From an uncultured Thermoanaerobaculia bacterium (GTDB lineage: Bacteria > Acidobacteriota > Thermoanaerobaculia > Gp7-AA8): DNA of 58,715 nucleotides. Of the stretch, positions 606 through 56,644 are shown in pieces (the first letter of the stretch is position 1; each line of letters starts with the position of its first letter). The stretch spans positions 1-58,715 of the forward strand of contig CAZYTO010000003.1 of assembly GCA_964650405.1 (NCBI GenBank), written 5' to 3'. The translations under genes were made by a program, and so were the position numbers. Under the pieces are notes generated by a model, which searched no databases, was not told the DNA's origin, and saw only the letters and a list, made by a program, of their open reading frames with translations.

Positions 606-721
606 CCGTTGTTCGTTGGTCGTTGGTCGTTGTTCGTTGTCCGTTGGTCGGGTATGGAACCGATCTCGGAAACGAACAACGGCACGAACAACGAATACGA
701 ACAACGACCAACGAACAACGG
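606..721. repeat. Family A heptamer (AACGAAC/AACGGAC/AACGACC) inverted-repeat hairpin
   Basis: Left arm 606-650 (ccgttgttcgttggtcgttggtcg...), 20-nt spacer, right arm 671-721 (aacgaacaacgg...caacgaacaacg). Confidence 0.9.
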
Positions 722-722
722 C

Positions 723-1637
723 TCATTCGTAGAACGCGACGATCCGCGCGTACAGCTTCTCCCCGATCGCGCTCTTTGCCTCGTGAGTGCCGCCGCCGAT
801 GTGTGGGGTGAGGATGAGCCGCGGGTCGTCCGGGAACGTCGTCGCCGGCGGCTCAGGGTCGAAGACGTCGAGTGCCAGCCCGGCAAGATGATGCGCCGCC
901 AGGGCGTCCAGGGCGGCGCGCTGGTCGAGCGCTTCGCCGCGCGCGGCGTTCACGAGGAAGGAGCCTCGCTTCATCGCGGCCAGTTCGCGGGCGCCGATCA
1001 TGCCGCGTGTCTCGGCGGTGAGTGGAACGTGAAGCGTGACGATGTCGCATTCGAGGATTTCGCCGAGCGATCCTGCCCGCACCGCGCCCCGCTCGGCGAA
1101 GTCGCCCTCGGAGAGATAGGGATCGAAGGCGCAGGGACGCATGCCGAATGCACCCGCCAGCCGTGCCACGCGCCGGCCCACCTCCCCGAGACCGATGATC
1201 CCGAGCCGGTAGAAGGCAAGCTCGTGCCGGGTCGCGGAATCCGCGCGATGCCAGCCTCCGGCCGCCACCTCCCGCGTGTACTGTGGCACGGTACGGGTCA
1301 TGGCGATCATGCAGCCCAGGACCAGCTCCGCCACGGCATTCGCATTCGCGCCGGGGAGGTGGATCACGGCGACGCCGCGCTCCCGGGCGGCCTCGTGGTC
1401 GATGTTGTCGGTGCCGCTCGTCCCCTGCGCGATCAGCTTGAGCCGCGGCGCCGCTTCGATCACCCGCCGCGAGACCACGTTGTACGAGCGCGTGACGAGA
1501 ACCTCCGCGCCGCCGGCAATCGCCGCCAGCTCGTCCTCCGTCGTCACCGGACGGTCCACGACCTCGAATCGGCCGTCCCGCTCCGCCGCGGCGCGGAAGG
1601 AAGGATCGACGTCGGCGGCAATGAGCAGGGTTCTCAT
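723..1637 (-). CDS. D-isomer-specific 2-hydroxyacid dehydrogenase (SerA-like, no ACT domain)
   Basis: GIIGLGEVG Rossmann motif, VNAARG, LALDVFDPEP, TPHIGG; start moved to ATG 1637 because the upstream ORF extension is translated repeat. Confidence 0.9.
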   Translation of the reverse strand: MRTLLIAADVDPSFRAAAERDGRFEVVDRPVTTEDELAAIAGGAEVLVTRSYNVVSRRVIEAAPRLKLIAQGTSGTDNIDHEAARERGVAVIHLPGANANAVAELVLGCMIAMTRTVPQYTREVAAGGWHRADSATRHELAFYRLGIIGLGEVGRRVARLAGAFGMRPCAFDPYLSEGDFAERGAVRAGSLGEILECDIVTLHVPLTAETRGMIGARELAAMKRGSFLVNAARGEALDQRAALDALAAHHLAGLALDVFDPEPPATTFPDDPRLILTPHIGGGTHEAKSAIGEKLYARIVAFYE

Positions 1638-1659
1638 CGGGTGCCAGAGTACTCGACAC

Positions 1660-1729
1660 CCGTTGTTCGTTGTTCGTTGTTCGTAACTACCTTCGACACG
1701 AACAACGATCAACGAACAACGGACAACGA
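1660..1729. repeat. Family A heptamer inverted-repeat hairpin
   Basis: cgttgttcgttgttcgttgttcgt (1661-1684) and acgaacaacgatcaacgaacaacggacaacga (1698-1729); contains the hutI stop codon. Confidence 0.9.
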
Positions 1730-2983
1730 GACTGCCACTCCGCCGCGGACGACGAATCGCCCGCCGTGCAGGACGTCGCGGACGAGATTCACGCCGAAGT
1801 GGTAGACGAGGTGGAGGTAGGACGGAGCATCAAGCAGGACGAGATCGGCCCGTTTGCCGGCTTCGATGGAGCCCGTCTGGCCGGCCAGGCGCAGCGAATG
1901 CGCGCCGTTGAGCGTGGCGGCCGTGAGCGACTCCTCGACGGTCATCTTCATGCGCAGCGTGGCGAGCTGCAGGACCATGGGCATCGACTCCGTCATCGAG
2001 GATCCGGGGTTGCAGTCGGTGGAGAGGGACACGATCGCCCCCGCCTCGATCAGCCGCCGCGCCGGGGCGTAACGATCGGACATGAGGAAGAAGCTCGTGG
2101 CGGGCAGGAGATTGGCCACGGTGTCCGAGGCGGCCAGGGCGGCGATGCCGTCGTCGCTGATGTGCATGAGGTGATCGGCCGACGCCGCGTGTACCTCGGC
2201 AGCCAGCGATGCGCCGCGCGTATCGGAAAGCTCGTCGGCGTGCAGCCGCGGCACAAGGCCGGCCGCCGCGCCGGCCCGGAGCACGCGCTCTCCCTGTTCG
2301 TGCGAGAAAACACCACGCTCGACGAAGGCGTCGCAGAAGACAGCCAGCTTCTGATCGGCCACGGCCGGGAGAATCGACTCCACGATCTCGTCCACCCAGG
2401 CCCCGTCGCCGCGGCGCTCGGGCGGGAACTCATGCGCGGCCAGGCAGGTCGGGACGAGCGTCAGCGGAGCGCGGGATGCGGCCGCGCGCACGGCCCGCAA
2501 CTGCTTCAGCTCATCCTCCAGGGTCAGCCCGTAGCCGCTCTTGGCCTCGGCGGTAGTCGTGCCATGACGAACCATCGTTCGCGCCCGGGCCAGGACGTTC
2601 TCCGTGAGCTCATCTTCCGAAGCGGCCCGCGTGGCACGAACGGTCGAGGCGATGCCTCCGCCGCTCGCTGCGATCGTTTCGTAGCTCTCCCCCTGCAGGC
2701 GCCGGTTGAACTCCGACTCGCGGAAGCCTGCGAACGGGATGTGCGTATGCGTGTCGACGAAACCCGGAAGCGCCGTGGCCCCATGGGCATCGAAGTCCTC
2801 GGTGATGGCCGTACGCAGCCCGGCCGGGATGTCCCGTTCCTCCCCCACGAAGGCGAAGCGGCCCTCGCGAATGACGATCACCCCGCCGTCGATGACCAGC
2901 AATGTCCGCATGGCCGCACCCCGCACCGCGCCTGCGCCCCGAGGCGTGGCGATCTGCGACAGATTGCGGATGAGGAGGGCCAC
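1709..2983 (-). CDS. hutI: Imidazolonepropionase
   Basis: PGFVDTHTH, GTTTAEAKSGYGL, FCDAFVE, LHADEL and STDCNPGSS motifs of HutI amidohydrolases. Confidence 0.92.
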   Translation of the reverse strand: MALLIRNLSQIATPRGAGAVRGAAMRTLLVIDGGVIVIREGRFAFVGEERDIPAGLRTAITEDFDAHGATALPGFVDTHTHIPFAGFRESEFNRRLQGESYETIAASGGGIASTVRATRAASEDELTENVLARARTMVRHGTTTAEAKSGYGLTLEDELKQLRAVRAAASRAPLTLVPTCLAAHEFPPERRGDGAWVDEIVESILPAVADQKLAVFCDAFVERGVFSHEQGERVLRAGAAAGLVPRLHADELSDTRGASLAAEVHAASADHLMHISDDGIAALAASDTVANLLPATSFFLMSDRYAPARRLIEAGAIVSLSTDCNPGSSMTESMPMVLQLATLRMKMTVEESLTAATLNGAHSLRLAGQTGSIEAGKRADLVLLDAPSYLHLVYHFGVNLVRDVLHGGRFVVRGGVAVSLSVVR

Positions 2984-3026
2984 CGACCGCAGAGTCTACC
3001 GTGTTCGACGAAGCGGCCGTGCCGAC

Positions 3027-3083
3027 GTGCTGGGCGCCGAGTGCTGGGTGCCGAGTGCCGAGTCCTCCGCACTCGGCACTCAG
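3027..3083. repeat. Family B heptamer (GCTGAGT/GCCGAGT/GCTGGGT) hairpin
   Basis: gtgctgggcgccgagtgctgggtgccgagtgccgagt ... gcactcggcactcag. Confidence 0.85.
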
Positions 3084-3124
3084 ATCGGAATCGATGGGAA
3101 CACGCACGAGGCAGATCCCAAAAC

Positions 3125-3173
3125 CACTCATGCCTTGTCACTCATGACTCATGCCCGCGGCCCGCAGCACTCG
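3125..3173. repeat. Family C heptamer arm (ACTCATG), plus one family B unit
   Basis: cactcatgcc..cactcatgactcatgccc..cagcactcg; reverse complement of the array at 18101-18147. Confidence 0.7.
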
Positions 3174-3175
3174 CC

Positions 3176-3676
3176 TTACGAGTTATTGGCCCGGAACATC
3201 GCCGTGATGGGTTGTTCGCCGGCCTCTTCCTCGGCGTCGAGGACGAGGAGGTGCTGGACGGTGTCGAGCGTTCCCTGCAGTTTGTTGCGGGCGGCGCGGC
3301 GCTCGATCTTCAAGTCCTGGATGGCGCGCTCCAGGTCGTGCACCCGCTGCATGGCCTGGGCCACGACGCGCTCGGAGAGGAGCTCGGCGTCTTTCACGAT
3401 CAGCTCCGCCTCCTGCCGGGCGTTGGCCTTCAGCTCTTCGGACACGCGCTGTGCGGAGAGGAGCGTCTCCTTCAGGATGCGCTCGCGGGCCGTGTGCTCC
3501 CCGAGGTCCTCGCGCAGGGCATGATTCTCGCGCGTGACGCGGTCGACCTCGCGCAGCAGGTGCTCGATCTCTTCCGCGACGAGGTGCAGGTAGGCGCGGA
3601 CTTCATCGCCGTCGTAGCCTTTGAAACCGCGCGAGAAGGTCTGCTTCTGGATATCGAGTGGCGTGAGACCTTGCAT
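3176..3676 (-). CDS. divIVA: DivIVA-domain cell division/polarity protein
   Basis: N-terminal LTPLDIQKQTFSRGFKGYDGDEVRAYL signature followed by coiled coil; GGGAGGGG SD upstream; yggS-yggT-divIVA synteny. Confidence 0.93.
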   Translation of the reverse strand: MQGLTPLDIQKQTFSRGFKGYDGDEVRAYLHLVAEEIEHLLREVDRVTRENHALREDLGEHTARERILKETLLSAQRVSEELKANARQEAELIVKDAELLSERVVAQAMQRVHDLERAIQDLKIERRAARNKLQGTLDTVQHLLVLDAEEEAGEQPITAMFRANNS

Positions 3677-3701
3677 CGTCCCCTCCCAACACTTCCCAGC
3701 A

Positions 3702-4031
3702 CTACTTGTGAAGTATAGCGGAGGAGGCCACCAGAACCATTTCCTGCAGGAAGTAGACGAGCAGCAGCACGATCAGCGGCGACCAGTCGATCCCAGCCGT
3801 GTTGAAGCGCCGAAGGAAGAGCTGGAAGGGACGGACGAACGGCCTGGCGAAGCGGGAACAGATCTCGTTGAGCTGCTCCAGGACGACATATGCGCCGCGG
3901 TTGCGCCAGCGGAACGACGAGTGCGATGCGAAGAACAACAGCCAGGAGAGGACCACCCAGGTGATGACGATCCACTTCACCACGTCGAGGATCATGTAGA
4001 GGAGATGGAAGAACGGACCGAGGAACGCCAT
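3702..4031 (-). CDS. yggT: YggT family membrane protein
   Basis: MAFLGPFFHLL...GIDWSPLIVLLL motif; ATG overlaps the yggS stop (TGATG). Confidence 0.85.
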   Translation of the reverse strand: MAFLGPFFHLLYMILDVVKWIVITWVVLSWLLFFASHSSFRWRNRGAYVVLEQLNEICSRFARPFVRPFQLFLRRFNTAGIDWSPLIVLLLVYFLQEMVLVASSAILHK

Positions 4032-4690
4032 CAGACCCGGCTCCCGAAGATGGCCCGTCCGACGCGCACGTGCGTCGCGCCCTCTTCCACTGCCGCTTCG
4101 AAGTCTTCGCTCATCCCCATGGACAGATACTCCACGCCCAAACCGTCGCGCAGGGCCCGCAATTCGCGGAAGTAGCGCCGGGCGTCCTCCACCGTGCCGG
4201 CCGGAGGGATGGCCATGAGACCCCGCAGGTGCAGCGAGGGCATGTCCGCGACGGCCTTGGCCAGTGCCCCCAGCTCGTTCCGGGCCGCGCCGCTCTTCTG
4301 CGTCTCGTCGCCGATGTTCACCTGCACGAGCACCTCCTGCCGCTTCCCCGCGCCGTCGGCGGCGCGGGCGATCTTCCCGGCCAGGTCGGCCGAATCCACG
4401 GTCTGGATGACGTCGAAGAGCCGCACTGCGTCCTTGGCCTTGTTCGACTGGAGGTGTCCGATGAGATGCCACTGTGCACTGCCGGCCACCAGCGGCTTCT
4501 TCTCGCGCGCCTCCGGGACCCGGTTCTCGCCGATGTCGGTGACGCCCGCGGCGATGGCTTCCTCGACGTAGGCCGCCGGAAAGACCTTCGTCACGGCGAT
4601 GAGCGTGACCTCGTCCACGCTCCGTCCCGCGCGGGCGCAGGCGGCGGCGATGCGGGCGCGCACGCCGGCAACCCCGTCACGAATCGACAC
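4031..4690 (-). CDS. yggS: PLP homeostasis protein YggS/PLPBP
   Basis: LIAVTK, DIGENRV, WHLIGHLQSNKAK, LRGLMAIP, LSMGMSEDFEAAVEEGATHVRVGRAIFG; GTG start with GGAGAGG SD. Confidence 0.95.
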   Translation of the reverse strand: MSIRDGVAGVRARIAAACARAGRSVDEVTLIAVTKVFPAAYVEEAIAAGVTDIGENRVPEAREKKPLVAGSAQWHLIGHLQSNKAKDAVRLFDVIQTVDSADLAGKIARAADGAGKRQEVLVQVNIGDETQKSGAARNELGALAKAVADMPSLHLRGLMAIPPAGTVEDARRYFRELRALRDGLGVEYLSMGMSEDFEAAVEEGATHVRVGRAIFGSRV

Positions 4691-5108
4691 GGCGCCTCTC
4701 CACATGGCGGCCGTCGGCGCGGTCGACGGCCAGGTTCGCCAGCCGGTCCGCCTCCTTGTTTCCGGCGCGCAGGGTGTGGCGGATCGAAAAGCGGCGGAAG
4801 TGCCGGACCAGCATCTTGGCCCGCTGGAACAGGGGGATGAGGTTTGGATGCTTGACCCGGTACTTGCCGAGCATCTGCTGGACGAGCAGGAGCGAGTCGC
4901 TGACCACTTCCAGCTCCTCGGCTCCCTCTTTCTGCGCCGTGTCCAGGGCCTCCAGGAGGCCGGAGTACTCCGCGACGTTGTTGGTGGTCGTTCCGAGGTA
5001 GCCGGCAATCTCGATCACTTCCGAGTCGGAGCGAAGGACGACGCCATAGCCGGCCGGTCCGGGATTGCCGCGCGACGCTCCGTCGACGAATGCGGTGAAT
5101 TTCTTCAG
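4677..5108 (-). CDS. rnhA: Ribonuclease HI (archaeal/actinobacterial type), probable CTG start
   Basis: In-frame upstream of the ORF-track start lies LKKFTAFVDGASRGNPGPAGYG (catalytic Asp); also TNNVAEYSGL, SDSLL and NKEADRLAN. The only plausible start is CTG 5108, overlapping the upstream TGA. Confidence 0.88.
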   Translation of the reverse strand: MKKFTAFVDGASRGNPGPAGYGVVLRSDSEVIEIAGYLGTTTNNVAEYSGLLEALDTAQKEGAEELEVVSDSLLLVQQMLGKYRVKHPNLIPLFQRAKMLVRHFRRFSIRHTLRAGNKEADRLANLAVDRADGRHVERRRVDS

Positions 5109-5815
5109 GATGCGGGTTTCTCCAGGTAGAGGATTCGGTGACAGCCTTCGCAGTGTACGAGGTCCCCGCGCTTGAGTTGCTGGTGCAGGGCCGGACGGAT
5201 GCGCGTGCGGCAGGCGCTGCAGGAGTCGTTCAGCACGGGCGCCACGGCGCTGTTCTGCCGCTGTTTGAAGATGCGGTGGAACTCCCGCTTCAGCGCGTCG
5301 GGGATCCCTTCCTCGATGCCCGCCGCCTTCGTCCTCAGGGAGGCGACCTCCGCGCGCAGGTCCGCCAGCGAGTGTTGCCAGGCGTCGTGGGCTTCATCCC
5401 AGCGGGTCTTGAGGGCGTCGTGTCCGCTCTTCCGCTCGTCGAGCCGGCTCTGCAGCCCGTCGATCTCGCCGATCGTCTTGAGGGCCGAATCCTCCAGCTC
5501 CTTGACGTGCTTGCGCGTGGCGTCGATCTCCTTCCACGCCGCGGCGTACTGCTGTGGATTCTTCACCTGCATGAGCTGCCCCTGGTACTTCTTGAGCAGC
5601 TCCTCCTGGTCCGAGAGCTCGCCCTCCGCCCGGCGCCGCTCCTTGGACAGCGTCTCGATCTGCGCCGTCAGCTTCGTGGTCTCTTCCGCCGCGGCCTGCC
5701 ACTCGCGGTCGATGGCCGCGAACGACTCCGGTTTGGCGGCCAACTGCTTCTCCCGGTCCCCGATCTGGGTAAGGACCGTCTGGAGCTCCCACAGTTTCTC
5801 GACTTCCTGATTCAC
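5105..5815 (-). CDS. Coiled-coil protein with C4-type zinc ribbon (DUF164/CT398 family)
   Basis: LWELQ...long coiled coil...CSACRTRIRP...CEGCHRILY; GTG start with GGAGG SD. Confidence 0.9.
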   Translation of the reverse strand: MNQEVEKLWELQTVLTQIGDREKQLAAKPESFAAIDREWQAAAEETTKLTAQIETLSKERRRAEGELSDQEELLKKYQGQLMQVKNPQQYAAAWKEIDATRKHVKELEDSALKTIGEIDGLQSRLDERKSGHDALKTRWDEAHDAWQHSLADLRAEVASLRTKAAGIEEGIPDALKREFHRIFKQRQNSAVAPVLNDSCSACRTRIRPALHQQLKRGDLVHCEGCHRILYLEKPAS

Positions 5816-5931
5816 CTCGCCTCCATGAATGAAAAAGGCGTTCCGATCGTGGAACGCCTGTACGGGTGGCTGCCTGCCGTCGCCGCTCGCTTGGGATCGT
5901 GTGTCGTCATTGTCTGCAATGCGCCTCGCCA

Positions 5932-6007
5932 TGGTGGGTCCACCAGGATTCGAACCTGGGACCTGCCGGTTATGAGCCGGTAGCTCTAACCGCTGAGCTA
6001 TGGACCC
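5932..6007 (-). tRNA. tRNA with CAT anticodon, most likely tRNA-Ile2 (lysidine-modified); CCA encoded
   Basis: GGGTCCATAGCTCAGCGGTTAGAGCTACCGGCTCATAACCGGCAGGTCCCAGGTTCGAATCCTGGTGGACCCACCA, 76 nt cloverleaf; G1-C72 pair excludes fMet; the GGCTCATAACCG arm resembles Ile2 rather than elongator Met. Confidence 0.93.
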
Positions 6008-6060
6008 GTCCGGCGCGCGATTCTAACACCGGGTGCGAGCTCGCACGACGGAGGACTGTT

Positions 6061-6156
6061 TAGCGAGCGGAAGGTAGCGAGCGGCGAGCGGGGGTGAAGT
6101 TGTCGACACCCGACACCCCGGCTGCGATCAGCCACCAGCGACCAGCAATCAGCGAG
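6061..6156. repeat. Mosaic of heptamer arms (E: TAGCGAG/CGGCGAG; G: CGACACC; H: ATCAGCG/ACCAGCG)
   Basis: tagcgagcggaaggtagcgagcggcgagcgg, cgacacccgacacccc, atcagccaccagcgaccagcaatcagcg. Confidence 0.7.
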
Positions 6157-6158
6157 CC

Positions 6159-7337
6159 CTACTGCCGCTCGACGTGATCCCCGATGGTCATGTGGTAGCG
6201 CGTGCCGACGATCCTGGCGGTAGCGGTGTGCGCCTCGGTGGTGAGGATGCCGATTTCGCCGAGGACCTGGCGCGGCTGGCCGGGCTGCGGGCTCTCGCGC
6301 CAGACCGTCAGGAAGTCGCCCGGCTGCACCGAGTCGTCGCGGCCGAGATTGACCTCGATGAGCACGCCCGAGGCGAGTGCACCGCCCCAGCCGCCTTCGG
6401 CGTTGACGATGTAGCCCTGCGTCTTGCCGCTGGCAGGATCGCAGAAGGCGGGGATGTCGGGGATGCGCGCCAGGGGGATGGGGATCTGCGGCAGCGGCTT
6501 GAGGCGCGCTCCGGCGTGGATGTCCAAACACGACTCGGTGACGATTCCGCGCGCGAAGTGGTCGTCCGCGCAGAGGATGCGAATCTGCCCGCGGTACTCC
6601 CAATGCCGGCCCAGCGTCTGGCCCGTGACCGGGTGCGTGATCAATTGGCCCGGCTCGACCACGAGATACGTCTCGCCGGCCACCAGGCCGGTGGCCGTTC
6701 CGCCGTCGAGGTAAACGAGATCGCTGTTGGAGCCACCCAGTTCCTGATGGATGGCACCCTTCTCGTAAAACGCCTCCTGGTCTTCGTACGAACCGACGCG
6801 ATTCGGCATGGGCTCATTCGGATCGCCGATGTAGCCGAAGCAGTAAACGTCCGCTTCCGTCCCGAGCGGGACCGGCGCCGCCGTAGCCAATGCTCCGCCT
6901 GCGGCGACCACCTGTTCCTGATGCTCGGGCGTCGCCGCCGCCGCCGTCGTGCTTCCGACGATCGGCCCGGTCGTGCCTGTGGAGGACGTGCCGGCTGCGG
7001 CCTGGGCGGCCTCACCCTCGACGAGGAGCACGTCACCGGGATAGATCCAGTGGGCGTCGGTGATCCAGGTGTTCGACTCCCAGAGCTGCGGCCAGAGGTA
7101 GGCGTTGTTGTAGAACTGCTGGGCCAGGCCCCAGAGCGTGTCGCCCTGCTTGATGGTGTAGGTCTTGGCGGCCGCGCCGTACGAGGCGGGGTCGGGAGGG
7201 TTGTAGGCCGTCCAATGGTCACCCGCGCGGTGGAGCTCACGCGGCGGATGCGACGAGGAAGTCGCCTTCTTCGCGGCTCCGAGGAGCGGGACCGCGACCA
7301 ACAGGAGAATGGGAGCCACCCGACGCACACTGACCAT
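6159..7337 (-). CDS. LysM peptidoglycan-binding secreted protein (FlgT-C-like C-terminus possible)
   Basis: Signal peptide MVSVRRVAPILLLVAVPLLGA; LysM YTIKQGDTLWGLAQQFYNNAYLWPQLWESN...WIYPGDVL; AGGGAGGGG SD. Confidence 0.88.
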   Translation of the reverse strand: MVSVRRVAPILLLVAVPLLGAAKKATSSSHPPRELHRAGDHWTAYNPPDPASYGAAAKTYTIKQGDTLWGLAQQFYNNAYLWPQLWESNTWITDAHWIYPGDVLLVEGEAAQAAAGTSSTGTTGPIVGSTTAAAATPEHQEQVVAAGGALATAAPVPLGTEADVYCFGYIGDPNEPMPNRVGSYEDQEAFYEKGAIHQELGGSNSDLVYLDGGTATGLVAGETYLVVEPGQLITHPVTGQTLGRHWEYRGQIRILCADDHFARGIVTESCLDIHAGARLKPLPQIPIPLARIPDIPAFCDPASGKTQGYIVNAEGGWGGALASGVLIEVNLGRDDSVQPGDFLTVWRESPQPGQPRQVLGEIGILTTEAHTATARIVGTRYHMTIGDHVERQ

Positions 7338-9443: not shown

Positions 9444-9549
9444 GAAAGGGCGAAGGATGAAGGGCGAAGGATGAAGGGCGAAGGGCGAAGGGCGAGGGAT
9501 GAAGGAGAGTCGACGTTCCTTCGCCCTTCATCCTTCGCCCTTCGCCCTT
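9444..9549. repeat. Family D heptamer (GAAGGGC/GAAGGAT) hairpin
   Basis: About 9 units 9444-9505, 12-nt loop, about 4.5 complementary units 9518-9549. Confidence 0.92.
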
Positions 9550-10343: not shown

Positions 10344-10427
10344 CTGAAGGCTGAAAGGCTGGTAGGCGTGGCACGCTCATGGGGCCCGGCCTTCAGCCCG
10401 CGAGCCTTTCCGCTTTCCAGCCTTTCT
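10344..10427. repeat. Family I octamer hairpin in the divergent GT2/tatD intergenic region
   Basis: ctgaaggctgaaaggctggtaggc ... gccttcagcc..gagcctttccgctttccagcctttc. Confidence 0.8.
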
Positions 10428-10453: not shown

Positions 10454-11233
10454 ATGTCCATGCGTTTCACCGACTCCCACTGCCACCTCACCATGGCCGA
10501 TGCCGCGGCGACGCTGGCCCGGGCCCGGGCGGGAGGGGTGGCCGGTTTCGTCGTTCCGGGGACGAAACTCTCCGATGCACCGCAGGCGGTGGCCATCGCG
10601 GCGGCCAATGACGACGTGTGGGCGGCGGTGGGATTTCATCCGCACGAGGCGAAGGACTGCGACGACCGCGCCTTCGCCGAGATCGAGCGGCTGGCGCACG
10701 ACGCGCGGGTGGTAGCGGTCGGGGAGTGCGGGCTCGATTATCACTACATGCACTCGCCGCGGGAGACGCAGATCGCCGTCTTTGAACGGCACCTGGACCT
10801 GGCCAAACGCCTGGACAAGCCCATCATCGTCCACAACCGCGACTCGACCGGCGACATGGTGGCCGTGCTCACCCGCAGCGGCGCGCGCGGCATCCTCCAC
10901 TCGTACACGGAAGACGCCGGCGTGGCCCGCACCTTCATCGGCCTCGGCTACTACATCTCGTTCTCCGGCATCGTCACCTTCCGCAGCGCCGATGCCCTAA
11001 GAGAGTGTGCGCGCCAACTGCCGCACGACCGCGTCCTCATCGAGACCGACACCCCGTACCTCGCCCCCGTCCCCTACCGCGGCAAGGACAATGAGCCGGC
11101 CTTCGTCGTGAAAGTCGCGGAGCTGCTGGCCGGACTCTGGGGCCGGCCGCTGGAGGAAGTAGCCGCGCAGACCACGGCCAACTTCGAGCACGCGTTCGGC
11201 GTGACGCTGAAAACGCCGTCATCCCGAGCGTAG
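10454..11233 (+). CDS. tatD: TatD family metal-dependent deoxyribonuclease
   Basis: DSHCHL, GFHPH, VGECGLDY, PIIVHNR, ILHSY, LIETDTPYLAP. Confidence 0.95.
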   Translation: MSMRFTDSHCHLTMADAAATLARARAGGVAGFVVPGTKLSDAPQAVAIAAANDDVWAAVGFHPHEAKDCDDRAFAEIERLAHDARVVAVGECGLDYHYMHSPRETQIAVFERHLDLAKRLDKPIIVHNRDSTGDMVAVLTRSGARGILHSYTEDAGVARTFIGLGYYISFSGIVTFRSADALRECARQLPHDRVLIETDTPYLAPVPYRGKDNEPAFVVKVAELLAGLWGRPLEEVAAQTTANFEHAFGVTLKTPSSRA

Positions 11234-11589
11234 CGAGGGACCTGGGCGTGCGGGCGGTTCCGCACAATGCCGAAGACGCGTCAAAGCATCACGCGGAGAC
11301 GCGGAGAAGCGGAGGTCGCGGAGTCATCAGCTCTCCTCCGCGTCTCCGCGTAAACCATCAAGCCGACAATGCCCGCTTCGTTCGGAACCGCCCCACCCAC
11401 CCAGGTCCCTCGCTCGGCGCTTCCAAGAAAGTGCCAGTGTCATGCGTGTTTACAAGCCAACAAACCAATCACGAGGAGGATGCGGAGAAAAGCAAAACCT
11501 CCGCGATCTCCGCGTCTCCGCGTGACCCGTCCCTCGTCGTTTCTTCTCTCAGGCGCACCGTACCCGCGCCGTGTTGGGCTCGGGATGAC
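11218..11589. repeat. REP-like palindrome (GTCATCCCGAGC...GCTCGGGATGAC) interrupted by two CGCGGAG-type palindromes
   Basis: Left arm 11218-11261; complementary segments at 11384-11414 and 11578-11589; inner hairpins at 11291-11351 and 11470-11524. Confidence 0.8.
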
Positions 11590-42501: not shown

Positions 42502-43398
42502 TCACAGCTTCCCCAGCCGCTCCTTCCATCGCGCCCACGCCTCATCGCGCGCCTTCTTGTTGCCTGCGTAGGCGTCCTTCGTTTTCTGGTCGGCGTCGGC
42601 AGGCGGAGGCGGAGCATCGCCGGCGCGCATGAAGCCGTGACCGGCGCCTTCGTACGTCACCACCTCGTAGCTCTTCTTTGCCGCCGTCATCAGCTCCTGC
42701 GTCTTCGGCACGGTTGCGCCGACGCGCGCGTCGTTACCGCCGTAGAAGCCGTACACCGGCGCCTTGATCGCGGCGATGGCATCCGCCGACTCCGGCCCCG
42801 TACCGTAGAAGACGAATGCCGCAGCGAGGCTGGGGCGGTTCGTGGCGAAGCGAAAGGCCTGCCCGCCACCCCAGCAGAAACCGGCCACGGCCACCTTGCC
42901 GTTGGCGGCGGGCAGTTTGGCCACGTAATCGGCGGAGGCGTTGAGGTCGGACGTGATCTGGTCGGGCGGAAGGTCGCGGATGGCCTTTCCCACCGCGCCG
43001 GCGTCCAGCGAGCTCGTGCCGCCGCCGTTCGGTCCCATGCCGGAGAGCAGGTCCGGCGCGATGGCGATGTAGCCCGCCGCCGCCAGTTCGTCGGCCTCCA
43101 TCTGCACCCAGTCGCTCATGCCGAAGATCTCGTGAATGACCACCACGGCTGTGGCCTTGTGGCTCACCTCGGGATAGACGACGAAGGCGCTCACTGTGCG
43201 GCTGCCGCTCTTCAGATTCACCCATTCGCCGTGGCGCGACGACTTGTCGAGTGCCTGCCGCGCCCAGTTCACCGCCGGCGCAGGCTGTGCCGCGGCGGCG
43301 GCCGCATGCTCGGCATGTGCAGCGGTACTGGTGCCCTGCGCAAAGGCGCAGACGGCGACGGACAGAAAAAAGGTCACGGCGATGATGCAGCGTTTCAT
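42502..43398 (-). CDS. Dienelactone hydrolase family protein, secreted
   Basis: Signal peptide; VIHEIFG, GFCWGG (Cys nucleophile), YEGAGHGF. Confidence 0.9.
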   Translation of the reverse strand: MKRCIIAVTFFLSVAVCAFAQGTSTAAHAEHAAAAAAQPAPAVNWARQALDKSSRHGEWVNLKSGSRTVSAFVVYPEVSHKATAVVVIHEIFGMSDWVQMEADELAAAGYIAIAPDLLSGMGPNGGGTSSLDAGAVGKAIRDLPPDQITSDLNASADYVAKLPAANGKVAVAGFCWGGGQAFRFATNRPSLAAAFVFYGTGPESADAIAAIKAPVYGFYGGNDARVGATVPKTQELMTAAKKSYEVVTYEGAGHGFMRAGDAPPPPADADQKTKDAYAGNKKARDEAWARWKERLGKL

Positions 43399-43462
43399 TC
43401 GTTCCTCCCCAGATCGCATGAATTGAGCGTGACAGCTTACGCTCTCACACGGGGCCTGAGCG

Positions 43463-43565
43463 CGATACCTGATACCCGATACCGCTGTACCCGACACCCG
43501 CCACCCGGCACCCGTCACCCGCGACCCGCCACCCGGCACCCGGCACCCGGTACCCGGCACCCGGC
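43463..43565. repeat. Family G heptamer array (NNNACCC)n, one-sided
   Basis: gatacct gataccc ... gacaccc gccaccc ggcaccc gtcaccc gcgaccc gccaccc ggcaccc ggcaccc ggtaccc ggcaccc. Confidence 0.9.
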
Positions 43566-44721: not shown

Positions 44722-44843
44722 GTTCGTTGTCCGTTGTCCGTTGTCCGTTGTCCGTTGGTCGTTGTCGTTATTGGTTAGTCGTTGTTGTTGTTCGTTGCCG
44801 TTCAGTGTCACGAACAACGGACAACGAAGGACGGACAACGAAC
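44722..44843. repeat. Family A heptamer hairpin inside the DUF4331-TPR operon
   Basis: gttcgttgtccgttgtccgttgtccgttgtccgttggtcg ... acgaacaacggacaacgaaggacggacaacgaac; abuts both the TPR ATG and the DUF4331 stop. Confidence 0.9.
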
Positions 44844-46497: not shown

Positions 46498-46560
46498 GAG
46501 GATCTCCTCCTAGATCACTAGAGGAGAGGCGTTTGGGCGGCATTCCCCTACCCTGCGGTG

Positions 46561-46647
46561 CGGGGTTACGAGGTTGCGGGGTTGCGGGGTTGCGGGGTTG
46601 CGGGGTTGCGACGAGCCCGGCAACTCTGTAACCCTGCAACCCGGCAA
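46561..46647. repeat. Family J octamer (GGGGTTGC) hairpin
   Basis: Six units 46561-46610; complementary gcaactctgtaaccctgcaacccggcaa 46620-46647. Confidence 0.9.
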
Positions 46648-47436: not shown

Positions 47437-47661
47437 ATGAACTATTTGGACATCATCACGGTCGAGCCTGACAAGCGTGGCGGACAGCCATGCATTCGGG
47501 GACTGCGGATCACCGTGTCCGACGTCCTGTCATATCTTGCGTCGGGCATGTCCGAGGACGAGATCATTTCCGACTTCCCGGATCTCACACGTGAAGACAT
47601 TCGCGCAGCGCTCAGCTACGCAGCCGACCGTGAACGCAAGGTCGTGTTTTCACGCGCGTGA
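47437..47661 (+). CDS. DUF433 family antitoxin (VapB45-like)
   Basis: GGQPCIRGLRITVSDVL...GMSEDEIISDFPDLTREDIRAALSYA. Confidence 0.92.
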   Translation: MNYLDIITVEPDKRGGQPCIRGLRITVSDVLSYLASGMSEDEIISDFPDLTREDIRAALSYAADRERKVVFSRA

Positions 47662-47993
47662 AACTGCTCCTGGACCACAACCTCTCACACCGGCTCGTGA
47701 ACCGCCTGGAAGACTTGTACCCGGAGAGCACGCAGACTCGACTTCTGGGTTTCGGACGTACTGGAGACACGGAGCTTTGGTTTTACGCGAGAACGCATGG
47801 CTACATTCTCGTCACCAAAGACAGCGACATCGCCGAGCGTGCAGTATCGCGAGGCGCTCCCCCCAAGGTGATCTGGCTTCGCATCGGCAACTGCACCGTG
47901 AATGTCATCGAAGCCGTTCTTCGCCGGAACTTCGATGCGATCCAGAAGTTAAGCGAGGCTCAGGATCAGGTCGTGCTCGAACTGATCGAGTGA
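47658..47993 (+). CDS. DUF5615 PIN-like toxin (VapC45-like)
   Basis: MKLLLDHNLS, GDTELW, LVTKDSD, PPKVIWLRIGN; GTGA overlap with DUF433. Confidence 0.88.
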   Translation: MKLLLDHNLSHRLVNRLEDLYPESTQTRLLGFGRTGDTELWFYARTHGYILVTKDSDIAERAVSRGAPPKVIWLRIGNCTVNVIEAVLRRNFDAIQKLSEAQDQVVLELIE

Positions 47994-50190: not shown

Positions 50191-50295
50191 CGGATGCCTT
50201 TCGGGAAGAAGTGCTGAAGGACTGCGGACGGGAGCGGGAACAGTTCCGTCCGTTGAAGCGCGACATCATCGCAGAAATCCGCGATGCCGGAACCG

Positions 50296-50454
50296 CGATA
50301 TCCGAAACCCGATTCCCAATCCGGATGCCGGACACTGAAACCCGATACCCGGTTCTGCACCTCGAGCATGAAGATACTCGGCACCCGGTACCCGTCACCC
50401 CGTTACGCCGTTACCCCGTTACCGGGTACCCGTTACCCGTCACCCGGTACCCGT
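50296..50454. repeat. Family G heptamer arrays (GATACCC/GAAACCC, GGTACCC/GTCACCC/CGTTACC), one-sided
   Basis: cgaaacccgattccc..gaaacccgatacccgg..ggcacccggtacccgtcaccccgttacgccgttaccccgttaccgggtacccgttacccgtcacccggtacccg. Confidence 0.8.
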
Positions 50455-53676
<3,222 letters not shown>

Positions 53677-53779: not shown

Positions 53780-54116
53780 GAAGGGGCGAAGGGCGAAGGA
53801 TGAAGGGCGAAGAGGGGGAACCGCCACCTTCAGCCCTTCATCTCCTCCTGAACTGTTTCATTGCGTGGGCGCCAATCTACCGGTAGGGAATCCTCGACGA
53901 GGAACCTGGCACGCGGAGATCACGGAGCCGAGGAGGCCGCGGGATCTCGAGATCTTCTCCGTGTCCTCCGCGCCTCCGCGTGAGACGATTCACGCGCCGC
54001 CGCTAGCCGCTCTCCAGATACCGCGCGCCGTCTTCTCCTTCGCCCTTCATCCTTCGCCCTTCGCCCTTTAACGCCCTCCCGCGTCGCCGCTCGCCGCTCG
54101 CCGCGGGCCGCTCGCC
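53780..54116. repeat. Composite intergenic repeat mosaic (family D arms, CACGCGGAG palindrome, family E arms)
   Basis: D 53780-53812, D' 53827-53841 and 54037-54068; CACGCGGAG 53910-53918...CTCCGCGTG 53974-53982; tcgccgc arrays 54084-54116. Confidence 0.8.
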
Positions 54117-54184
54117 CCGAGTGCGATCCCGCTCACAGCGCCTTTCCGGACGGGGCGCTATGATGCAGTCCGTCCAGAAACGCC

Positions 54185-54796
54185 ATGCCGGCCACGATTT
54201 ACGCGTTGAAGTCGACGTTCCAGGGAGTCCTGCGGCCACTGGTGCGGCGGCTCTTCGCCCTCGGCGTCACGGCCAATCAGGTCACCCTGACCGCCTGTCT
54301 TGCTTCCCTCGCCATCGGCGCGTTGCTCGTCCACGCCCCGGCCGTCTGGTTCGCGGCCGTGCCGGTGTGGATGTTCGTCCGCATGGCCCTCAACGCCATC
54401 GACGGCATGCTGGCCCGCGAGTTCGGCCAGAAGTCGGTCATGGGGGGCTATCTCAACGAGCTGACTGACGTCGTCTCCGACGCGGCACTCTACCTGCCGT
54501 TTGCGTTCGTACGGCCGTTCGGGTGGGAAGCGGTCTGCGCGGTGATCTTCCTGGCGGCGCTGACCGAAATGGCGGGCGTGCTCGGCGCTGTCGGCGTGGC
54601 CTCGCGACGGTACGACGGGCCGATGGGCAAGAGCGACCGCGCGTTCGTCTTCTCGCTGCTGGCCATCTGGATCGCCGCCGCGCCGGCGTTGCCCGGCTGG
54701 TCGGTCTGGATCCTGTGGAGCATCGCGGCACTCTGCGCGGCGACGGTGGCCAACCGGGTGCGCGCGGGCCTGCGGCTCGCGGAGGGAACGACATGA
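54185..54796 (+). CDS. ynbA: CDP-alcohol phosphatidyltransferase family (YnbA-like)
   Basis: IYALKSTFQGVLRP, ANQVT, RMALNAIDGMLARE, LNELTDVVSD, GPMGKSDRA. Confidence 0.88.
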   Translation: MPATIYALKSTFQGVLRPLVRRLFALGVTANQVTLTACLASLAIGALLVHAPAVWFAAVPVWMFVRMALNAIDGMLAREFGQKSVMGGYLNELTDVVSDAALYLPFAFVRPFGWEAVCAVIFLAALTEMAGVLGAVGVASRRYDGPMGKSDRAFVFSLLAIWIAAAPALPGWSVWILWSIAALCAATVANRVRAGLRLAEGTT

Positions 54797-56541
54797 GGGA
54801 ATCGATCGAGCGGACGTTCCGCACGTCCGACGGAACGGAGCTCTTCTACCGGCATTGGCCCGTCGCCGGAGCGTCGACGGGAGCCATCGTGCTGTTCCAT
54901 CGCGGACATGAGCACTCCGGGCGGATGGCCCATCTCGTCGACGAGCTGGGTCTGGACGACTTCGAGTTCTACGCCTGGGACGCGCGTGGACACGGCCGCT
55001 CGCCGGGAGTGCGCGGCTACAGCCCGAGCCTGGCCACCTCCATCCGGGACGTGAACGAGTTCGTGGCCGAGGCCGGGCGGGAGTCGGGGCATCGCTCCGA
55101 GGACGTCGCCGTCATCGCCCAGAGCGTCGGCGCCGTGCTTGTGGCGGCCTGGCTGCACGACTACGCCCCGCACATCCGCTGCGCCGTGCTCGCCTCCCCG
55201 GCATTCAAGGTCAAGCTGTACGTTCCCTTCGCCCGCCCGGGCCTGGCCCTCATGCAGAAAGTGCGCGGGAACTTCTTCGTGAAGAGCTACGTCAAGTCGA
55301 AGTTCCTCACCCACGACGAAGAGCGGATGTCGTCGTTCGACGACGACCCGCTCATCAGCCGGGCCATCTCGTCGAACATCCTCCTCGACCTCTACTCCAC
55401 GGCCGAACGGGTCGTCGCCGACGCCCAGGCCATCACGGTACCCCTCCAGCTCCTCATCTCCGGCTCCGATTGGGTCGTCCACCACAAGCCGCAGCACGAC
55501 TTCTTCGACCGGCTGGGCAGCACGGTCAAAGAGCGCCACGTGCTCTATGGATTCCACCACGACACGCTCGGCGAACGCGATCGGGAGAAGGCCAACGCGC
55601 TCATCCGCGACTTCGTACACGATCGCTTCGCGGCGCCGGCGGCGGAGCCGGACCTCACGAAAGCACACAAGCACGGCCCCACCCGCGAAGAGGCCGACCG
55701 GCTGGCGGCGCCCCTGCCGAAGTGGTCGCCGCGCGGCCTCTACTGGGCCGCTACGCGCGCGGCCATGCGCGTCGGCAGCAAACTCTCCGAGGGGCTGAAA
55801 CTCGGGGAGGACACCGGATTCGACTCGGGCGCCACGCTCGACTACGTCTATCGCAACACGCCCGGCAGCCCCACGCCCCTGGGCCGTCTCATCGACCGCA
55901 ACTACCTCGGCTCCATCGGCTGGAAGGGCATCCGCCAGCGCAAGGTGCACGTCGAGGAGCTGATCCGCGAGGCCATGAAACGCCTGCGCGACGACGGGCA
56001 GCCGATCCACGTCATGGACATCGCCGCCGGTCACGGCCGCTACGTGCTCGAAGCGCTGGAGACGGGGAACGGACGGCCCGATTCGATCCTGCTGCGCGAT
56101 TACAGCGACCTCAATGTGCGCGAGGGATCCGCGCTCATCGAGTCGAAAGGACTCGGCGCCATCGCCCGTTTCGTCAAGGGCGATGCCTTCGACCGCGAGA
56201 GCCTGGCCGCCGTCGCGCCGCGGCCGACCCTGGCCATCGTCTCCGGCCTCTACGAGCTCTTCCCCGACAACGACATGGTCCAGCGCTCGCTGGCCGGCGT
56301 CGCCGACGCCGTGGCGCCGGGCGGGTATCTCATCTACACGGGACAGCCGTGGCATCCGCAGCTCGAGCTGATCGCCCGCGCGCTGACGAGCCATCGCGGA
56401 GGGCAAGCCTGGGTGATGCGCCGCCGCACGCAGGGAGAGATGGATCAACTGGTGGACCATGCCGGGTTTGAGAAGCTCGCCCAGCGCATCGACCGATGGG
56501 GCATCTTCACGGTCTCGCTGGCGGTGAGGCGGGCGGAGTGA
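54793..56541 (+). CDS. ynbC: Bifunctional alpha/beta hydrolase + class I methyltransferase (YnbC-like)
   Basis: HRGHEHSGR, WDARGHGRSPG, AQSVG, GFHHDTLGE; GFDSGATLDYVYRN, DIAAGHGRY, SGLYELF, TGQPWHPQ, MRRRTQ; ATGA coupling. Confidence 0.9.
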   Translation: MRESIERTFRTSDGTELFYRHWPVAGASTGAIVLFHRGHEHSGRMAHLVDELGLDDFEFYAWDARGHGRSPGVRGYSPSLATSIRDVNEFVAEAGRESGHRSEDVAVIAQSVGAVLVAAWLHDYAPHIRCAVLASPAFKVKLYVPFARPGLALMQKVRGNFFVKSYVKSKFLTHDEERMSSFDDDPLISRAISSNILLDLYSTAERVVADAQAITVPLQLLISGSDWVVHHKPQHDFFDRLGSTVKERHVLYGFHHDTLGERDREKANALIRDFVHDRFAAPAAEPDLTKAHKHGPTREEADRLAAPLPKWSPRGLYWAATRAAMRVGSKLSEGLKLGEDTGFDSGATLDYVYRNTPGSPTPLGRLIDRNYLGSIGWKGIRQRKVHVEELIREAMKRLRDDGQPIHVMDIAAGHGRYVLEALETGNGRPDSILLRDYSDLNVREGSALIESKGLGAIARFVKGDAFDRESLAAVAPRPTLAIVSGLYELFPDNDMVQRSLAGVADAVAPGGYLIYTGQPWHPQLELIARALTSHRGGQAWVMRRRTQGEMDQLVDHAGFEKLAQRIDRWGIFTVSLAVRRAE

Positions 56542-56545
56542 CGGA

Positions 56546-56644
56546 GAAAGGCTGGAAGGCGGGAAGGCTGAAAGGCTGAAAGGATCGAAAAGAGCTGTGG
56601 TGCCGCCGTCGTCCCTTCCAGCCTCTCAGCCTTCCAGCCTTTCC
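56546..56644. repeat. Family I octamer hairpin between ynbC and ynbD
   Basis: gaaaggctggaaggcgggaaggctgaaaggctgaaagg ... cccttccagcctctcagccttccagcctttc. Confidence 0.88.

Follow-up and report, generated by a model that had tools for sequence, protein, structure and literature searches.

Tandem 7- and 8-nt repeats form G-first hairpins at gene boundaries in an uncultured Thermoanaerobaculia bacterium

Introduction

Tandem repeats with a seven-nucleotide unit have been described between the genes of several bacteria, and heptamer hairpins in this position are already known from Xanthomonas and from heterocystous cyanobacteria, where they are called short tandemly repeated repetitive (STRR) sequences. 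Cyanobacterial STRRs are tandem 7-bp intergenic units that occur as several families per genome, some of them folding into hairpins within operons (PMC2670836, PMC4692102). One such hairpin lies between hupS and hupL, and transcript stabilisation or translational coupling has been proposed for STRR hairpins (PMC2670836). In Xanthomonas, the GGGAATC heptamer forms 70-75 pairs per genome, always in 'convergent orientation' with one array on each strand, so that each pair is capable of forming a stem-loop (Rehm et al., 2015; PMC4692102). The heptamers of Xanthomonas and Nostoc (GGGGAYT) are intergenic, lie near a neighbouring open reading frame (ORF), and vary in length and sequence between close relatives (PMC4692102). 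Here we describe a dense set of tandem 7- and 8-nt arrays, many of them paired into hairpins, in a 58,715-nt stretch of DNA (hereafter, the window) from an uncultured Thermoanaerobaculia bacterium of the phylum Acidobacteriota (assembly GCA_964650405.1, contig CAZYTO010000003.1, positions 1 to 58,715).

Related repeats occur in other lineages. The TAACTGA repeats of marine Beggiatoaceae and the heptanucleotide elements of Geobacter metallireducens are intergenic, often located just upstream of start codons, and patchily distributed (PMC4679880, PMC2700814). Among long simple sequence repeats (SSRs) with 5-11-nt units, heptanucleotides are, as later papers summarise the original survey, the most over-represented class, intergenic in location and attributed to polymerase slippage (Mrazek et al., 2007, via PMC4679880, PMC4692102).

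The elements of the window are STRR-like and long-SSR-like, and are not repetitive extragenic palindromic (REP) sequences, miniature transposable elements with inverted repeats (MITEs), terminators, or CRISPRs. With STRRs they share intergenic 7-bp tandem units, multiple families per genome, and hairpins inside operons, and the comparison with STRRs drawn in an initial annotation of this DNA, made from the sequence alone, was apt. They differ from STRRs in their host phylum and its 67% G+C, in unit sequence, in the mixing of 8-mers with 7-mers, in the dominance of hairpins, and in their higher density. If the G-rich strand is taken as an arrow, the convergent pairs of Xanthomonas have the same G-first polarity as the hairpins described here, and a further likeness is that three of our families (D, G, and J) are predicted to be able to form G-quadruplexes. 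However, Xanthomonas has essentially one family, whereas about eleven co-exist in one genome here, most of them not predicted to be G-quadruplex-capable, and the positions reported as conserved and stable in Xanthomonas contrast with the shifts in presence and family that we find between relatives. Long SSRs resemble the present elements in their heptamer excess and intergenic arrays, but that class is defined by direct repeats only and offers no account of inverted pairing, polarity, or a unit order common to several loci. The Beggiatoaceae and Geobacter repeats are likewise intergenic heptamer arrays, but they are almost always direct (169 direct sets versus one indirect set in a Beggiatoa genome) and consist of a single unit in 2-6 copies.

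Full-text literature searches returned nothing comparable for Acidobacteria. New here are the lineage, the many co-existing 7- and 8-nt families, the high density, the rapid gain, loss, and replacement of elements, and a quantified polarity rule; to our knowledge, polarity, nesting, and turnover have not been described for STRRs. Our preferred reading, in which we place about even confidence, is that the hairpins are non-coding, DNA-level, self-expanding microsatellite palindromes that are tolerated only at gene boundaries.

Results

Arrays and hairpins of the window

Tandem arrays were called with Tandem Repeats Finder (TRF), and 20 second-order Markov shuffles of the sequence served as the null. 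The window yielded 30 rows of period 7 against 2.5 in the shuffles, 14 of period 8 against 2.05, and 8 of period 14 against 0.7. As in long SSRs and STRRs, the 7-nt units (within the 5-11-nt range of the former class) stand head to tail in at least three copies, are in excess over chance, and are mainly intergenic, with 88% of array bases falling in spacers. The initial annotation had listed about 22 array loci in ten families, and TRF found period-7/8 arrays at every one of them, namely A (606, 1660, 44722), B (3027, 18066, 34931), C (3125, 18101), D (9444, 14202, 53780), E (6061, 54084), F (25436, 27754), G (6104, 43463, 50296), H (6127), I (7475, 10344, 56546), and J (34553, 46561). Overlooked at that stage were an eleventh family, K (the 8-mer ACGCGGAG, at 11291, 11336, 11499, and 53965), and an extra D arm at 54032-54068.

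Array density in the window is about 5 per 10 kb. The arrays occupy about half of the intergenic spaces rather than most of them as had been claimed (18-20 of the spacers of at least 30 nt, out of a total of about 38 that is approximate because refining start codons by coding score cut some genes short and failed to pick up one). In the same way, an architecture of two inverted arms, described as usual, applies to about 60% of the loci: inverted-repeat searches and folding identified 13 long hairpins with periodic arms, whereas 8-9 loci are single-arm or composite arrays without a local partner (6061-6155, 18066-18146, 25436-25516, 27750-27892, 34555, 43463-43565, 50274-50455, and 54032-54116). 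Nine of the 13 hairpins fold as single-stranded DNA with z-scores of -4.5 to -11.1, and none of 200 shuffles was equally stable; the remaining four, beginning at 7473, 10343, 14196, and 53778, are weak (z = -1.5 to -2.2). The loci are as follows, with X1 and X2 denoting public sequencing runs whose contigs cover some of them.

606 to 721: family A hairpin filling the spacer between a 2-hydroxyacid dehydrogenase stop (723) and the next gene; 5' arm CGTTGKT x6 (606-650), loop of about 20 nt, 3' arm of AACGAAC type (671-721); DNA fold -48.4 kcal/mol, z = -11.1.
1660 to 1729: family A hairpin (arms 25 nt, loop 13 nt); its 3' arm supplies the final codons and stop (1709-1711) of an amidohydrolase gene; z = -8.3.
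3019 to 3090: family B (GAGTGCY) array, the 3' part of which is a hairpin (3044-3083); z = -5.3; spanned by X1 and X2 contigs.
3125 to 3155: single family C arm (ACTCATG, complement of CATGAGT), about 20 nt from the divIVA stop (3176).
6061 to 6155: composite run, no hairpin, made up of GCGAGCG (E), CGACACC (G), and GCGACCA (H) units, between a LysM gene stop (6159) and tRNA-Met (5932-6007); X1 contig 6002-7053.
7476 to 7546: imperfect family I (AAGGCTGA) hairpin; z = -2.0; rare variant order AAGGCGGGAAGGCTGAAAGG in common with the locus at 56546.
9446 to 9549: family D hairpin, 12 nt from a glycosyltransferase stop (9562); 5' arm AAGGGCG/AAGGATG x8.7, 3' arm CCTTCGC x4.6; z = -9.1; 43x depth spike.
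10345 to 10425: weak family I hairpin (z = -1.5) in the divergent glycosyltransferase/tatD spacer, at the tatD inversion point.
11235 to 11523: family K arrays in a convergent spacer; hairpin 11291-11351 (z = -6.5) enclosed by an outer non-periodic stem (11235-11265 / 11390-11420); extra CTCCGCGT arm at 11499-11523.
14198 to 14319: D-related hairpin (ATGAAGG ... CCTTCGCCCTTCCT) with a 55-nt loop, ending 9 nt from a MerR-TPR gene stop (14329); z = -1.9; X1 contig 13717-14670.
18066 to 18146, + strand: B array followed by C array on the same strand, beginning 4 nt past an S9 peptidase stop; G/T-rich in the sense of that gene.
25436 to 25516, + strand: family F run passing from 8-mers (TAGTCGCT/TATTCGCT) to 7-mers (GTTCGCT); the TAG stop of a 2004-aa DUF11 protein lies within the first unit.
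27750 to 27892: family F, AGCGAATA x18, the longest array of the window, abutting a PMT-family gene stop (27893); complementary to 25436-25516, 2.2 kb away across gene 25551-27713.
29423 to 29607: long hairpin between a PMT-family gene and a LytS-type histidine kinase gene; 69-81-nt arms, 80-87% complementary, 23-nt loop, almost no periodicity, G-rich arm first; probably an old, decayed member of the class.
34555 to 34584, + strand: short single-arm family J (GGGTTGCG) array.
34931 to 35016: family B hairpin (GAGTGCC/GAGTGCT ... CTCAGCA) upstream of an MFS transporter gene; z = -7.2.
43463 to 43565, - strand: family G arrays (NNNACCC x13 on the + strand), 7 nt from a TPR gene stop (43573); G-rich and predicted to be G-quadruplex-capable in the sense of the genes.
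44721 to 44843: family A hairpin (TGTCCGT x6.6 ... ACGAACA x4.9) ending 1 nt from a DUF4331 gene stop (44845); z = -5.0.
46559 to 46647: family J hairpin in a divergent spacer; 5' arm TGCGGGGT x6.5, 3' arm CCCGGCAA x4, with one fixed position per unit differing between the arms; z = -6.0.
50274 to 50455, - strand: family G arrays (ACCCGTT x10 plus degenerate GAAACCCGAT units), with the stop of a 1081-aa sensor kinase gene within the last unit; X1 contig 50312-51130.
53780 to 54116: divergent spacer with four elements, the D hairpin at 53780-53850, K units at 53965-53980, a 3' arm of D at 54032-54068 (a mirror of 53780-53812, with 224 nt between them), and the E array at 54079-54116; 28x depth spike.
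56546 to 56643: family I hairpin (GAAAGGCT x4.8 ... CCTTCCAG x3.5) beginning 4 nt past a stop at 56541; z = -4.5; X1 contig 55378-57318, 0 differences.

Units typically combine a conserved core with 2-3 variable positions, for example NNNACCC, GAGTGCY, and AAGGNNG. The families had been called unrelated, and most are indeed as dissimilar as random heptamers, but the consensus units of A, F, and H, and those of B and G, are one substitution apart, and the F array switches from 8-mers to 7-mers inside one run. By a criterion of a run of at least three Gs per unit and at least four units, G-quadruplex formation is predicted for D (GAAGGGC), G (GGGTNNC, - strand), and J (GGGGTTGC), and not for A, B, C, E, F, H, I, or K.

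The arrays are not assembly artefacts, as several are spanned by independently built contigs. Logan contigs of run X1 agree with the window without a single difference across 1723-4209, 6002-7053, 13717-14670, 50312-51130, and 55378-57318, and an X2 contig agrees at 2749-3391. Other contigs terminate within arrays, as repeats would make them. Over the D and B/C arrays, depth climbs from about 5x to 28-43x with many mutually disagreeing loose ends, and in contigs from elsewhere the G-rich and C-rich arms of D type are joined by different loops, of 26 and 38 nt. The same families are therefore present at further loci, each with its own loop, and rarity elsewhere in the genome, one of the outcomes that would have told against the initial annotation, does not apply.

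Four genes have their stop codons within array units (1709-1722, 25436-25438, 27893-27895, and 50455-50457), and the present C-termini of those four proteins are therefore partly repeat-encoded. Several automatically listed long ORFs (among them 351-1805, 42502-43560, 43573-44838, and 34723-36237) cross arrays and would consequently have wrong gene starts.

Distribution across the lineage

A total of 160 related loci (L001-L160) were retrieved, comprising an ingroup of 1.58 Mb of non-redundant sequence and an outgroup of eleven loci (175 kb). About 145 of the related loci bear elements of this kind. Ingroup arrays have a base period of 7 in 216 cases, 8 in 87, 6 in 20, 10 in nine, and 11 in four; a further 72 have period 9 and are presumably mostly coding repeats, 9 being a multiple of three. 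The outgroup contains one period-7 and one period-8 array. Only 24 of 338 lineage arrays lie in coding sequence, and the sample divides into 143 hairpins and 84 single arrays. The closest TatD relatives, in a collection with one genome per species, are from uncultured Thermoanaerobaculia at no more than 82% amino acid identity, and the public runs that contain the window sequence are rock metagenomes, with no RNA run among them. Hairpin arrays are a lineage-wide trait of soil and rock Thermoanaerobaculia.

The strict 7-8-nt period, together with the core and variable positions of each unit, might suggest binding arrays for a reader of single-stranded heptads (a cold-shock or OB-fold protein) or for a nucleoid or regulatory protein, the period then being its footprint. 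CspB, which is cited in PMC4679880 as binding heptamer repeats with one protein per heptamer, provides a precedent. We regard this explanation as highly improbable. At least 78 unit families are found across the lineage, about 11 of them in one genome, and they have no common core; the presence, absence, and family of an array change at the same spacer; and a Pfam survey of the window found no association between arrays and particular gene classes.

Gene order in this part of the window (tatD, gt2, LAB_N, AMMECR1, slt, lysM ... divIVA, amidohydrolase) is conserved in relatives, but the content of a given spacer is not. The gt2-LAB_N spacer, which holds GAAGGGC units in the window, holds AATGTTG, GGTTGTC, GGTTGCT, CGGATAA, or GTTTTTG units, 8-mers, or nothing in relatives, and the divIVA-amidohydrolase spacer is 192 bp with a hairpin in the window versus 0-5 bp in many relatives. 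In L060, a 75-nt AGTCCTG/CAGGACT hairpin sits exactly at the ATGA stop/start overlap of the approximately 90% identical L049, with the new stop inside the first unit and the ATG directly after the last. Likewise, in L005 a TGA is followed at once by 150 nt of inserted DNA that L006 lacks, and one spacer holds a different, unrelated insert in each of L005, L006, and L008 (also about 90% identical). Remnants such as GAGACCCC persist at sites of L006 and L004 that are otherwise empty, which is consistent with the deletion of palindromes. Orthologous arrays also differ between species. The arrays are therefore not fixed at orthologous sites across relatives; such fixation is what the initial annotation had recognised as fatal to its idea of mobility. 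One comparison, between L021 and L129, is uninformative, as the two differ by 2 mismatches and come from the same genome.

At L006 11460-11760, where relatives carry heptamer hairpins, there are instead tandem repeats of about 49 nt arranged as inverted copies (GATCTCCGGTGAAGTCGCGCTGAGGTTCATCCTGCGGCGGAGCGTGCAG...). In the window, tatD (10454-11233) is inverted relative to gt2, whereas in more than 60 relatives the two genes are co-directional with an overlap of about 30 nt. Synteny with the relatives stops at tatD, and hairpin arrays flank the inverted gene on both sides (10345-10425 and 11235-11523).

Phage or prophage DNA of high-G+C hosts carries these elements as well. The virus-like IMG/VR contigs L166 (8.7 kb, four hairpins) and L173 (13 kb, three hairpins) carry an AGTTGTC family, all G-first, at a G+C content of 0.63-0.67. 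Two further viral contigs, L162 and L171 (G+C 0.40-0.41), contain long same-strand runs in which the family shifts stepwise through TGGTAAT, TTGTCAG, GGTTGTC, TTCCCTG, and GTTTCTG, resembling both cyanobacterial STRR runs and the composite array at 6061-6155.

Independent arms and shared unit strings

Of 107 hairpins, 50 have a 5' arm whose consensus departs by 1-2 nt from the complement of the 3' arm, even though each arm on its own is 85-100% homogeneous. Copy number shows essentially no correlation between the two arms (r = 0.14) and differs by at least one unit in 51 of the 107. As the arms differ independently in consensus and in copy number, they behave as independent microsatellites, in the manner that slippage predicts.

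Distant loci have strings of units in common. The 32 nt of variant units at 9518-9549 recur without change at 54037-54068 and are mirrored at 53780-53812, and the rare order AAGGCGGG-AAGGCTGA-AAGG is present at both 7476 and 56556. Nevertheless, the copies of A, B, D, and I have loops unrelated to one another, and no two loops are alike. It is therefore the arm sequence, and not the whole element, that would be copied between loci, which speaks against transposition of the kind known for MITEs and for REPINs (hairpins of two inverted REP halves). Slippage alone leaves unexplained the inverted pairing, the polarity, and a unit order common to loci 44-49 kb apart.

Hairpins may also be nested, an inner 7-mer family occupying the loop of an outer 8/16-mer family (L005 13509-13662; L008 3726-3878). 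The K hairpin of the window, lying within its non-periodic outer stem (11235-11420), is a comparable case.

The complementary F arrays, 2.2 kb apart, bracket gene 25551-27713 (720 aa, with a signal peptide, in a stretch of G+C 0.62) and so resemble a giant version of the hairpin architecture. This gene was considered as a mobiliser and rejected, since its product matches nothing in Pfam or NCBIfam and has none of the features of a nuclease or transposase.

Possible mobility of the elements

The recurrence of families at distant loci and elsewhere in the genome (28-43x against about 5x depth), the filled and empty sites between genomes about 90% identical, the hairpins in virus-like contigs (four in the 8.7 kb of L166, three in L173), and a nesting in the loops of other hairpins that recalls REP-targeting insertion sequence (IS) elements would all be expected of non-autonomous REPIN- or MITE-type elements. 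These would be moved in trans by a RAYT-like (REP-associated tyrosine transposase) enzyme of the HUH/Y1 class or by another transposase, either one per family or a single structure-specific one. REPs and REPINs are likewise extragenic, multi-copy hairpins of about 100 nt made of two inverted halves, with several families per genome, often in operons. The 20-40-nt imperfect palindrome of a REP has, as outlined in PMC3733652, a conserved GTAG or CGTC head. Here the outer ends (CCGTTG, GAGTGC, AAGGGC, AAGGCT, GGGGTT, and others) have no common tag, the arms are 25-60-nt arrays, and whole-element identity is lacking, with unrelated loops and arms that vary independently in copy number and consensus. 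The comparison with REPs and with bacterial interspersed mosaic elements (BIMEs) that had been offered for these arrays is thus not apt. MITEs fare no better, as the filled/empty pairs L049/L060 and L005/L006 show no target-site duplication and there is no conserved core and no terminal inverted repeat or tag independent of the arrays; the initial annotation was right to doubt that the families are ten separate MITEs, given that arm units and variant order are shared among loci with unrelated loops. Moreover, Pfam searches found no transposase, RAYT, Y1 transposase, reverse transcriptase, or integrase encoded in the 58.7-kb window with its approximately 22 loci, and no IS200/IS605-like TnpA matched in 1.8 Mb of related loci. 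Finally, close relatives carry different families in the very same spacer. Taken with these observations, mobilisation in trans seems to us a poor prospect.

CRISPR arrays, with 24-48-nt direct repeats and unique spacers of comparable length, were also rejected, since the units here are 7-8 nt long, contiguous, and placed in inverted arms.

A G-first polarity

The 5' arm contains more G than C in 125 of 143 hairpins, and its composition (A 0.19, C 0.16, G 0.36, T 0.29) shows that it is rich in T as well. Counting by unit family, which limits the effect of shared ancestry, 68 of 78 families are G-first and nine C-first. A palindrome reads alike on both strands, and the polarity is therefore an intrinsic property of the element. 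The same is found in every gene context, with 73 G-first to 6 C-first hairpins in co-directional spacers, 16:3 in divergent ones, and 5:0 in convergent ones. Each of the nine hairpins scored in the window conforms, as do 9 of 9 from virus-like contigs. Long hairpins with little or no detectable periodicity, that at 29423-29607 among them, are also mostly G-first (92:40), whereas short generic inverted repeats in the same sequences have no bias (154:138). For comparison, the first 50 kb of Nostoc pCC7120alpha holds only three heptamer arrays and no pairs, and the viral contigs with GGGAATC (three) or ACTGGGG (five) arrays contain no hairpins.

Two candidate causes of the polarity were rejected. 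If 5' arms served to provide back-up stop codons, stops should be frequent in them, but 54 of 109 have none, and arms with a stop are fewer than composition predicts. Avoidance of C-rich sense RNA, on which Rho could load, is not supported by the true single arrays in co-directional spacers, of which 28 are G-rich and 26 C-rich in the sense strand.

It is tempting to speculate that the polarity records the way in which hairpins are manufactured, with two converging syntheses at a break or gap adding G/T-rich 7-8-nt repeats to 3' ends, in a telomere-like manner, before the ends are joined; we would give this only a slim chance. Stated as an explanation of the hairpins themselves, these would be scars of break or gap repair, left by an activity that extends both 3' ends of the break with tandem G/T-rich units. 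The units would be copied reiteratively from a short template, or else from another array used as template, with synthesis stopping at its apex. Such a history would place the G/T arm first on both strands and would leave a unique junction loop, unequal arms, and nesting after a cut at the apex. The geometry directly predicts the polarity in every gene context, and the extension of that polarity to non-periodic long hairpins, yet not to short generic repeats, fits it as well. So do the unique loops beside arm strings common to loci, the uncorrelated arm copy numbers, the nested hairpins of the same polarity (L005, L008, and window 11235-11420), the clean insertion exactly at a gene junction in L060 relative to L049, and the Xanthomonas pairs described as always convergent (PMC4692102). 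Against these points, Pfam detects no candidate enzyme in the window, whether reverse transcriptase, PrimPol, Ku, or LigD, and the presence of about ten unit families in one genome would call for many templates, unless the arrays template themselves. In L022 and L019, a variant unit is outermost in both arms and the apex unit is ancestral, which misfits growth from the centre, and the fixed substitutions in half of the arm pairs would require later slippage in any case. On balance, we consider repair scars quite unlikely.

Position relative to genes and RNA folding

An arm edge lies within 15 nt of a stop codon in 60 of 109 hairpins, at a median distance of 6 nt. In the window, the stops at 723, 1709, 6159, 9562, 14329, 18061, 25438, 27893, 43573, 44845, 50455, and 56541 are within an array or 0-12 nt from one. 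By symmetry, the polarity always leaves stops beside a G/T-rich arm and starts beside an A/C-rich one. Of 38 single arrays in contact with a stop, 30 are G/T-rich when read in the sense of the gene that ends there.

REPs in Escherichia coli act as 3'-end protecting or processing hairpins. A comparable role could be imagined here, in which the hairpins are functional RNA or translation elements that protect or process 3' ends, or that bridge stop and start at the base of the stem; a G/U-rich arm past the stop and an A/C-rich, start-poor arm before the next start would then be selected. The closeness of hairpins to stops, the 3' arms that abut the next ATG (L060 and viral contig L167), the sense bias of stop-touching arrays, the placement of arms that follows from the polarity, and the retention of the hairpin past the gt2 stop in at least seven species are all in keeping with such a role, as is the proposal that STRR hairpins stabilise transcripts or couple translation (PMC2670836).

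The predicted RNA folds point the other way. Among 79 co-directional hairpins from the window and L001-L160, the antisense strand folds better in 52 and the sense strand in 26 (Wilcoxon p = 0.003, with incomplete independence, since many loci are related by descent), which is opposite to the expectation from selection on mRNA. Arm mismatches are frequently A·C on one strand and G·T on the other, and the difference in folding could reflect a transcription-linked mutation bias, or selection that weakens the mRNA hairpin. In addition, many relatives lack an element at the same spacer or have overlapping genes there, 29 of the 143 hairpins lie in divergent spacers, 5' arms are not enriched in stops, no sense bias is seen among the true single arrays of co-directional spacers (28 versus 26), and a search of Rfam 15 at the gathering score matched only tRNA-Met (5935-6007) in the window and no array. 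A selected function in RNA or translation is, in our judgement, unlikely, if not negligibly so.

Intrinsic terminators were likewise rejected. Periodic hairpins lack T-runs, and a terminator scan picked none of them, yet found a canonical terminator at 18499-18522. Convergent spacers hold 6.5% of arrays versus a background of 13% of spacers, so that there is no enrichment, and the sense RNA is less stable than the antisense.

Other features of the window

The window is a bacterial chromosome segment of 67% G+C with ordinary housekeeping, envelope, and signalling genes, as identified with Pfam. Its products include DivIVA, a LysM protein, an SLT transglycosylase, AMMECR1, a GT2 glycosyltransferase, TatD, an S9 peptidase, CsgG, the 2004-aa DUF11 protein, histidine kinases, and a glycogen debranching enzyme. 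A metagenome scan with AMMECR1 found no relative above 75% amino acid identity. The tRNA-Met (CAT) gene, at 5932-6007 on the - strand, has a CT398-like gene on one side and the E/G/H composite array on the other. Since the long ORF 5105-5932 reaches right up to this tRNA gene, the start of the gene within that ORF is probably further downstream.

Two segments may be defence-related islands. At 36291-38447, a lower-G+C stretch encodes a 718-aa SIR2-like protein with an AAA/NB-ARC-like NTPase and a weak Dsr2-like match, and at 47437-47993 a DUF433/DUF5615 (PIN-like) pair resembles a toxin-antitoxin module. In run X1, word depth rises to about 100x at 50609-51232 and about 25x at 56849-57472, versus about 4x elsewhere. 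No array is present there, both jumps falling in coding sequence (the sensor kinase gene and a phosphatase-domain gene, respectively); one possibility is a short high-depth contig of an abundant relative.

Discussion

A key outcome of this analysis is that period, architecture, and a polarity that the initial annotation had not noticed are common to many families. The shared generating mechanism put forward in the initial annotation is upheld to the extent that one process or constraint seems common to them all; slippage, which it had named as a candidate, is supported indirectly and is insufficient alone. We postulate that self-expanding microsatellite palindromes, whose action and evolution are most likely a matter of the DNA and not of RNA or protein binding, would arise and turn over in several steps. 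Each arm would grow, shrink, and homogenise alone through unit-step replication slippage, and its partner would be created or corrected by inverted copying, through a template switch or fold-back at a palindromic seed. Unit strings would now and then be copied between loci, and long palindromes would also be deleted. Selection would then purge the elements that damage genes or signals, such that survivors sit at gene boundaries and often supply the stop codon. The expected outcome is a rapid turnover in which one spacer holds different families, or nothing, in related species.

We infer that a gene-dense genome tolerates inserts only at the exact gene junction, where a fold-back insert keeps the stop and the next start near one another. 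Effects on expression, for example through the uncoupling of overlapping, translationally coupled genes or through strong hairpins in operon transcripts, are probably side effects.

Several points weigh against this proposal. The polarity rule is not predicted by slippage and template switching, from which both polarities should arise, and it is for this reason that our confidence in self-expanding palindromes goes no higher than the halfway mark. Copying between loci lacks a demonstrated mechanism, and the search for a mobiliser covered only the window and 1.8 Mb of related loci. Within-population variation in copy number was not seen, the contigs being identical across four samples at a depth of 2-6x, where Logan contigs drop rare variants. 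Finally, a GGTTGTC-type hairpin past the gt2 stop is kept in at least seven species about 75-85% identical, and its apex (GTTGTCTGYG...) is conserved in L019, L021, L022, L024, L035, and L069, a persistence that hints at constraint or function.

On a practical level, the arrays break short-read assemblies, shift predicted starts and stops, and coincide with rearrangement such as the tatD inversion, and they therefore matter for the annotation and binning of soil Acidobacteriota. In many bacteria, no long simple repeats are more over-represented than those with heptanucleotide units, whose origin has been put down to polymerase slippage without test. The present lineage provides a natural experiment in this regard, with hundreds of independent hairpins, many families, and filled and empty sites between close relatives, and the G/T-first rule is a concrete constraint for any model. 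If the polarity does record the manufacture of hairpins at breaks or gaps, it would reveal an undescribed repeat-adding repair activity in bacteria, one that is perhaps shared by Acidobacteriota, Xanthomonas, and cyanobacteria and that might explain the heptanucleotide excess.

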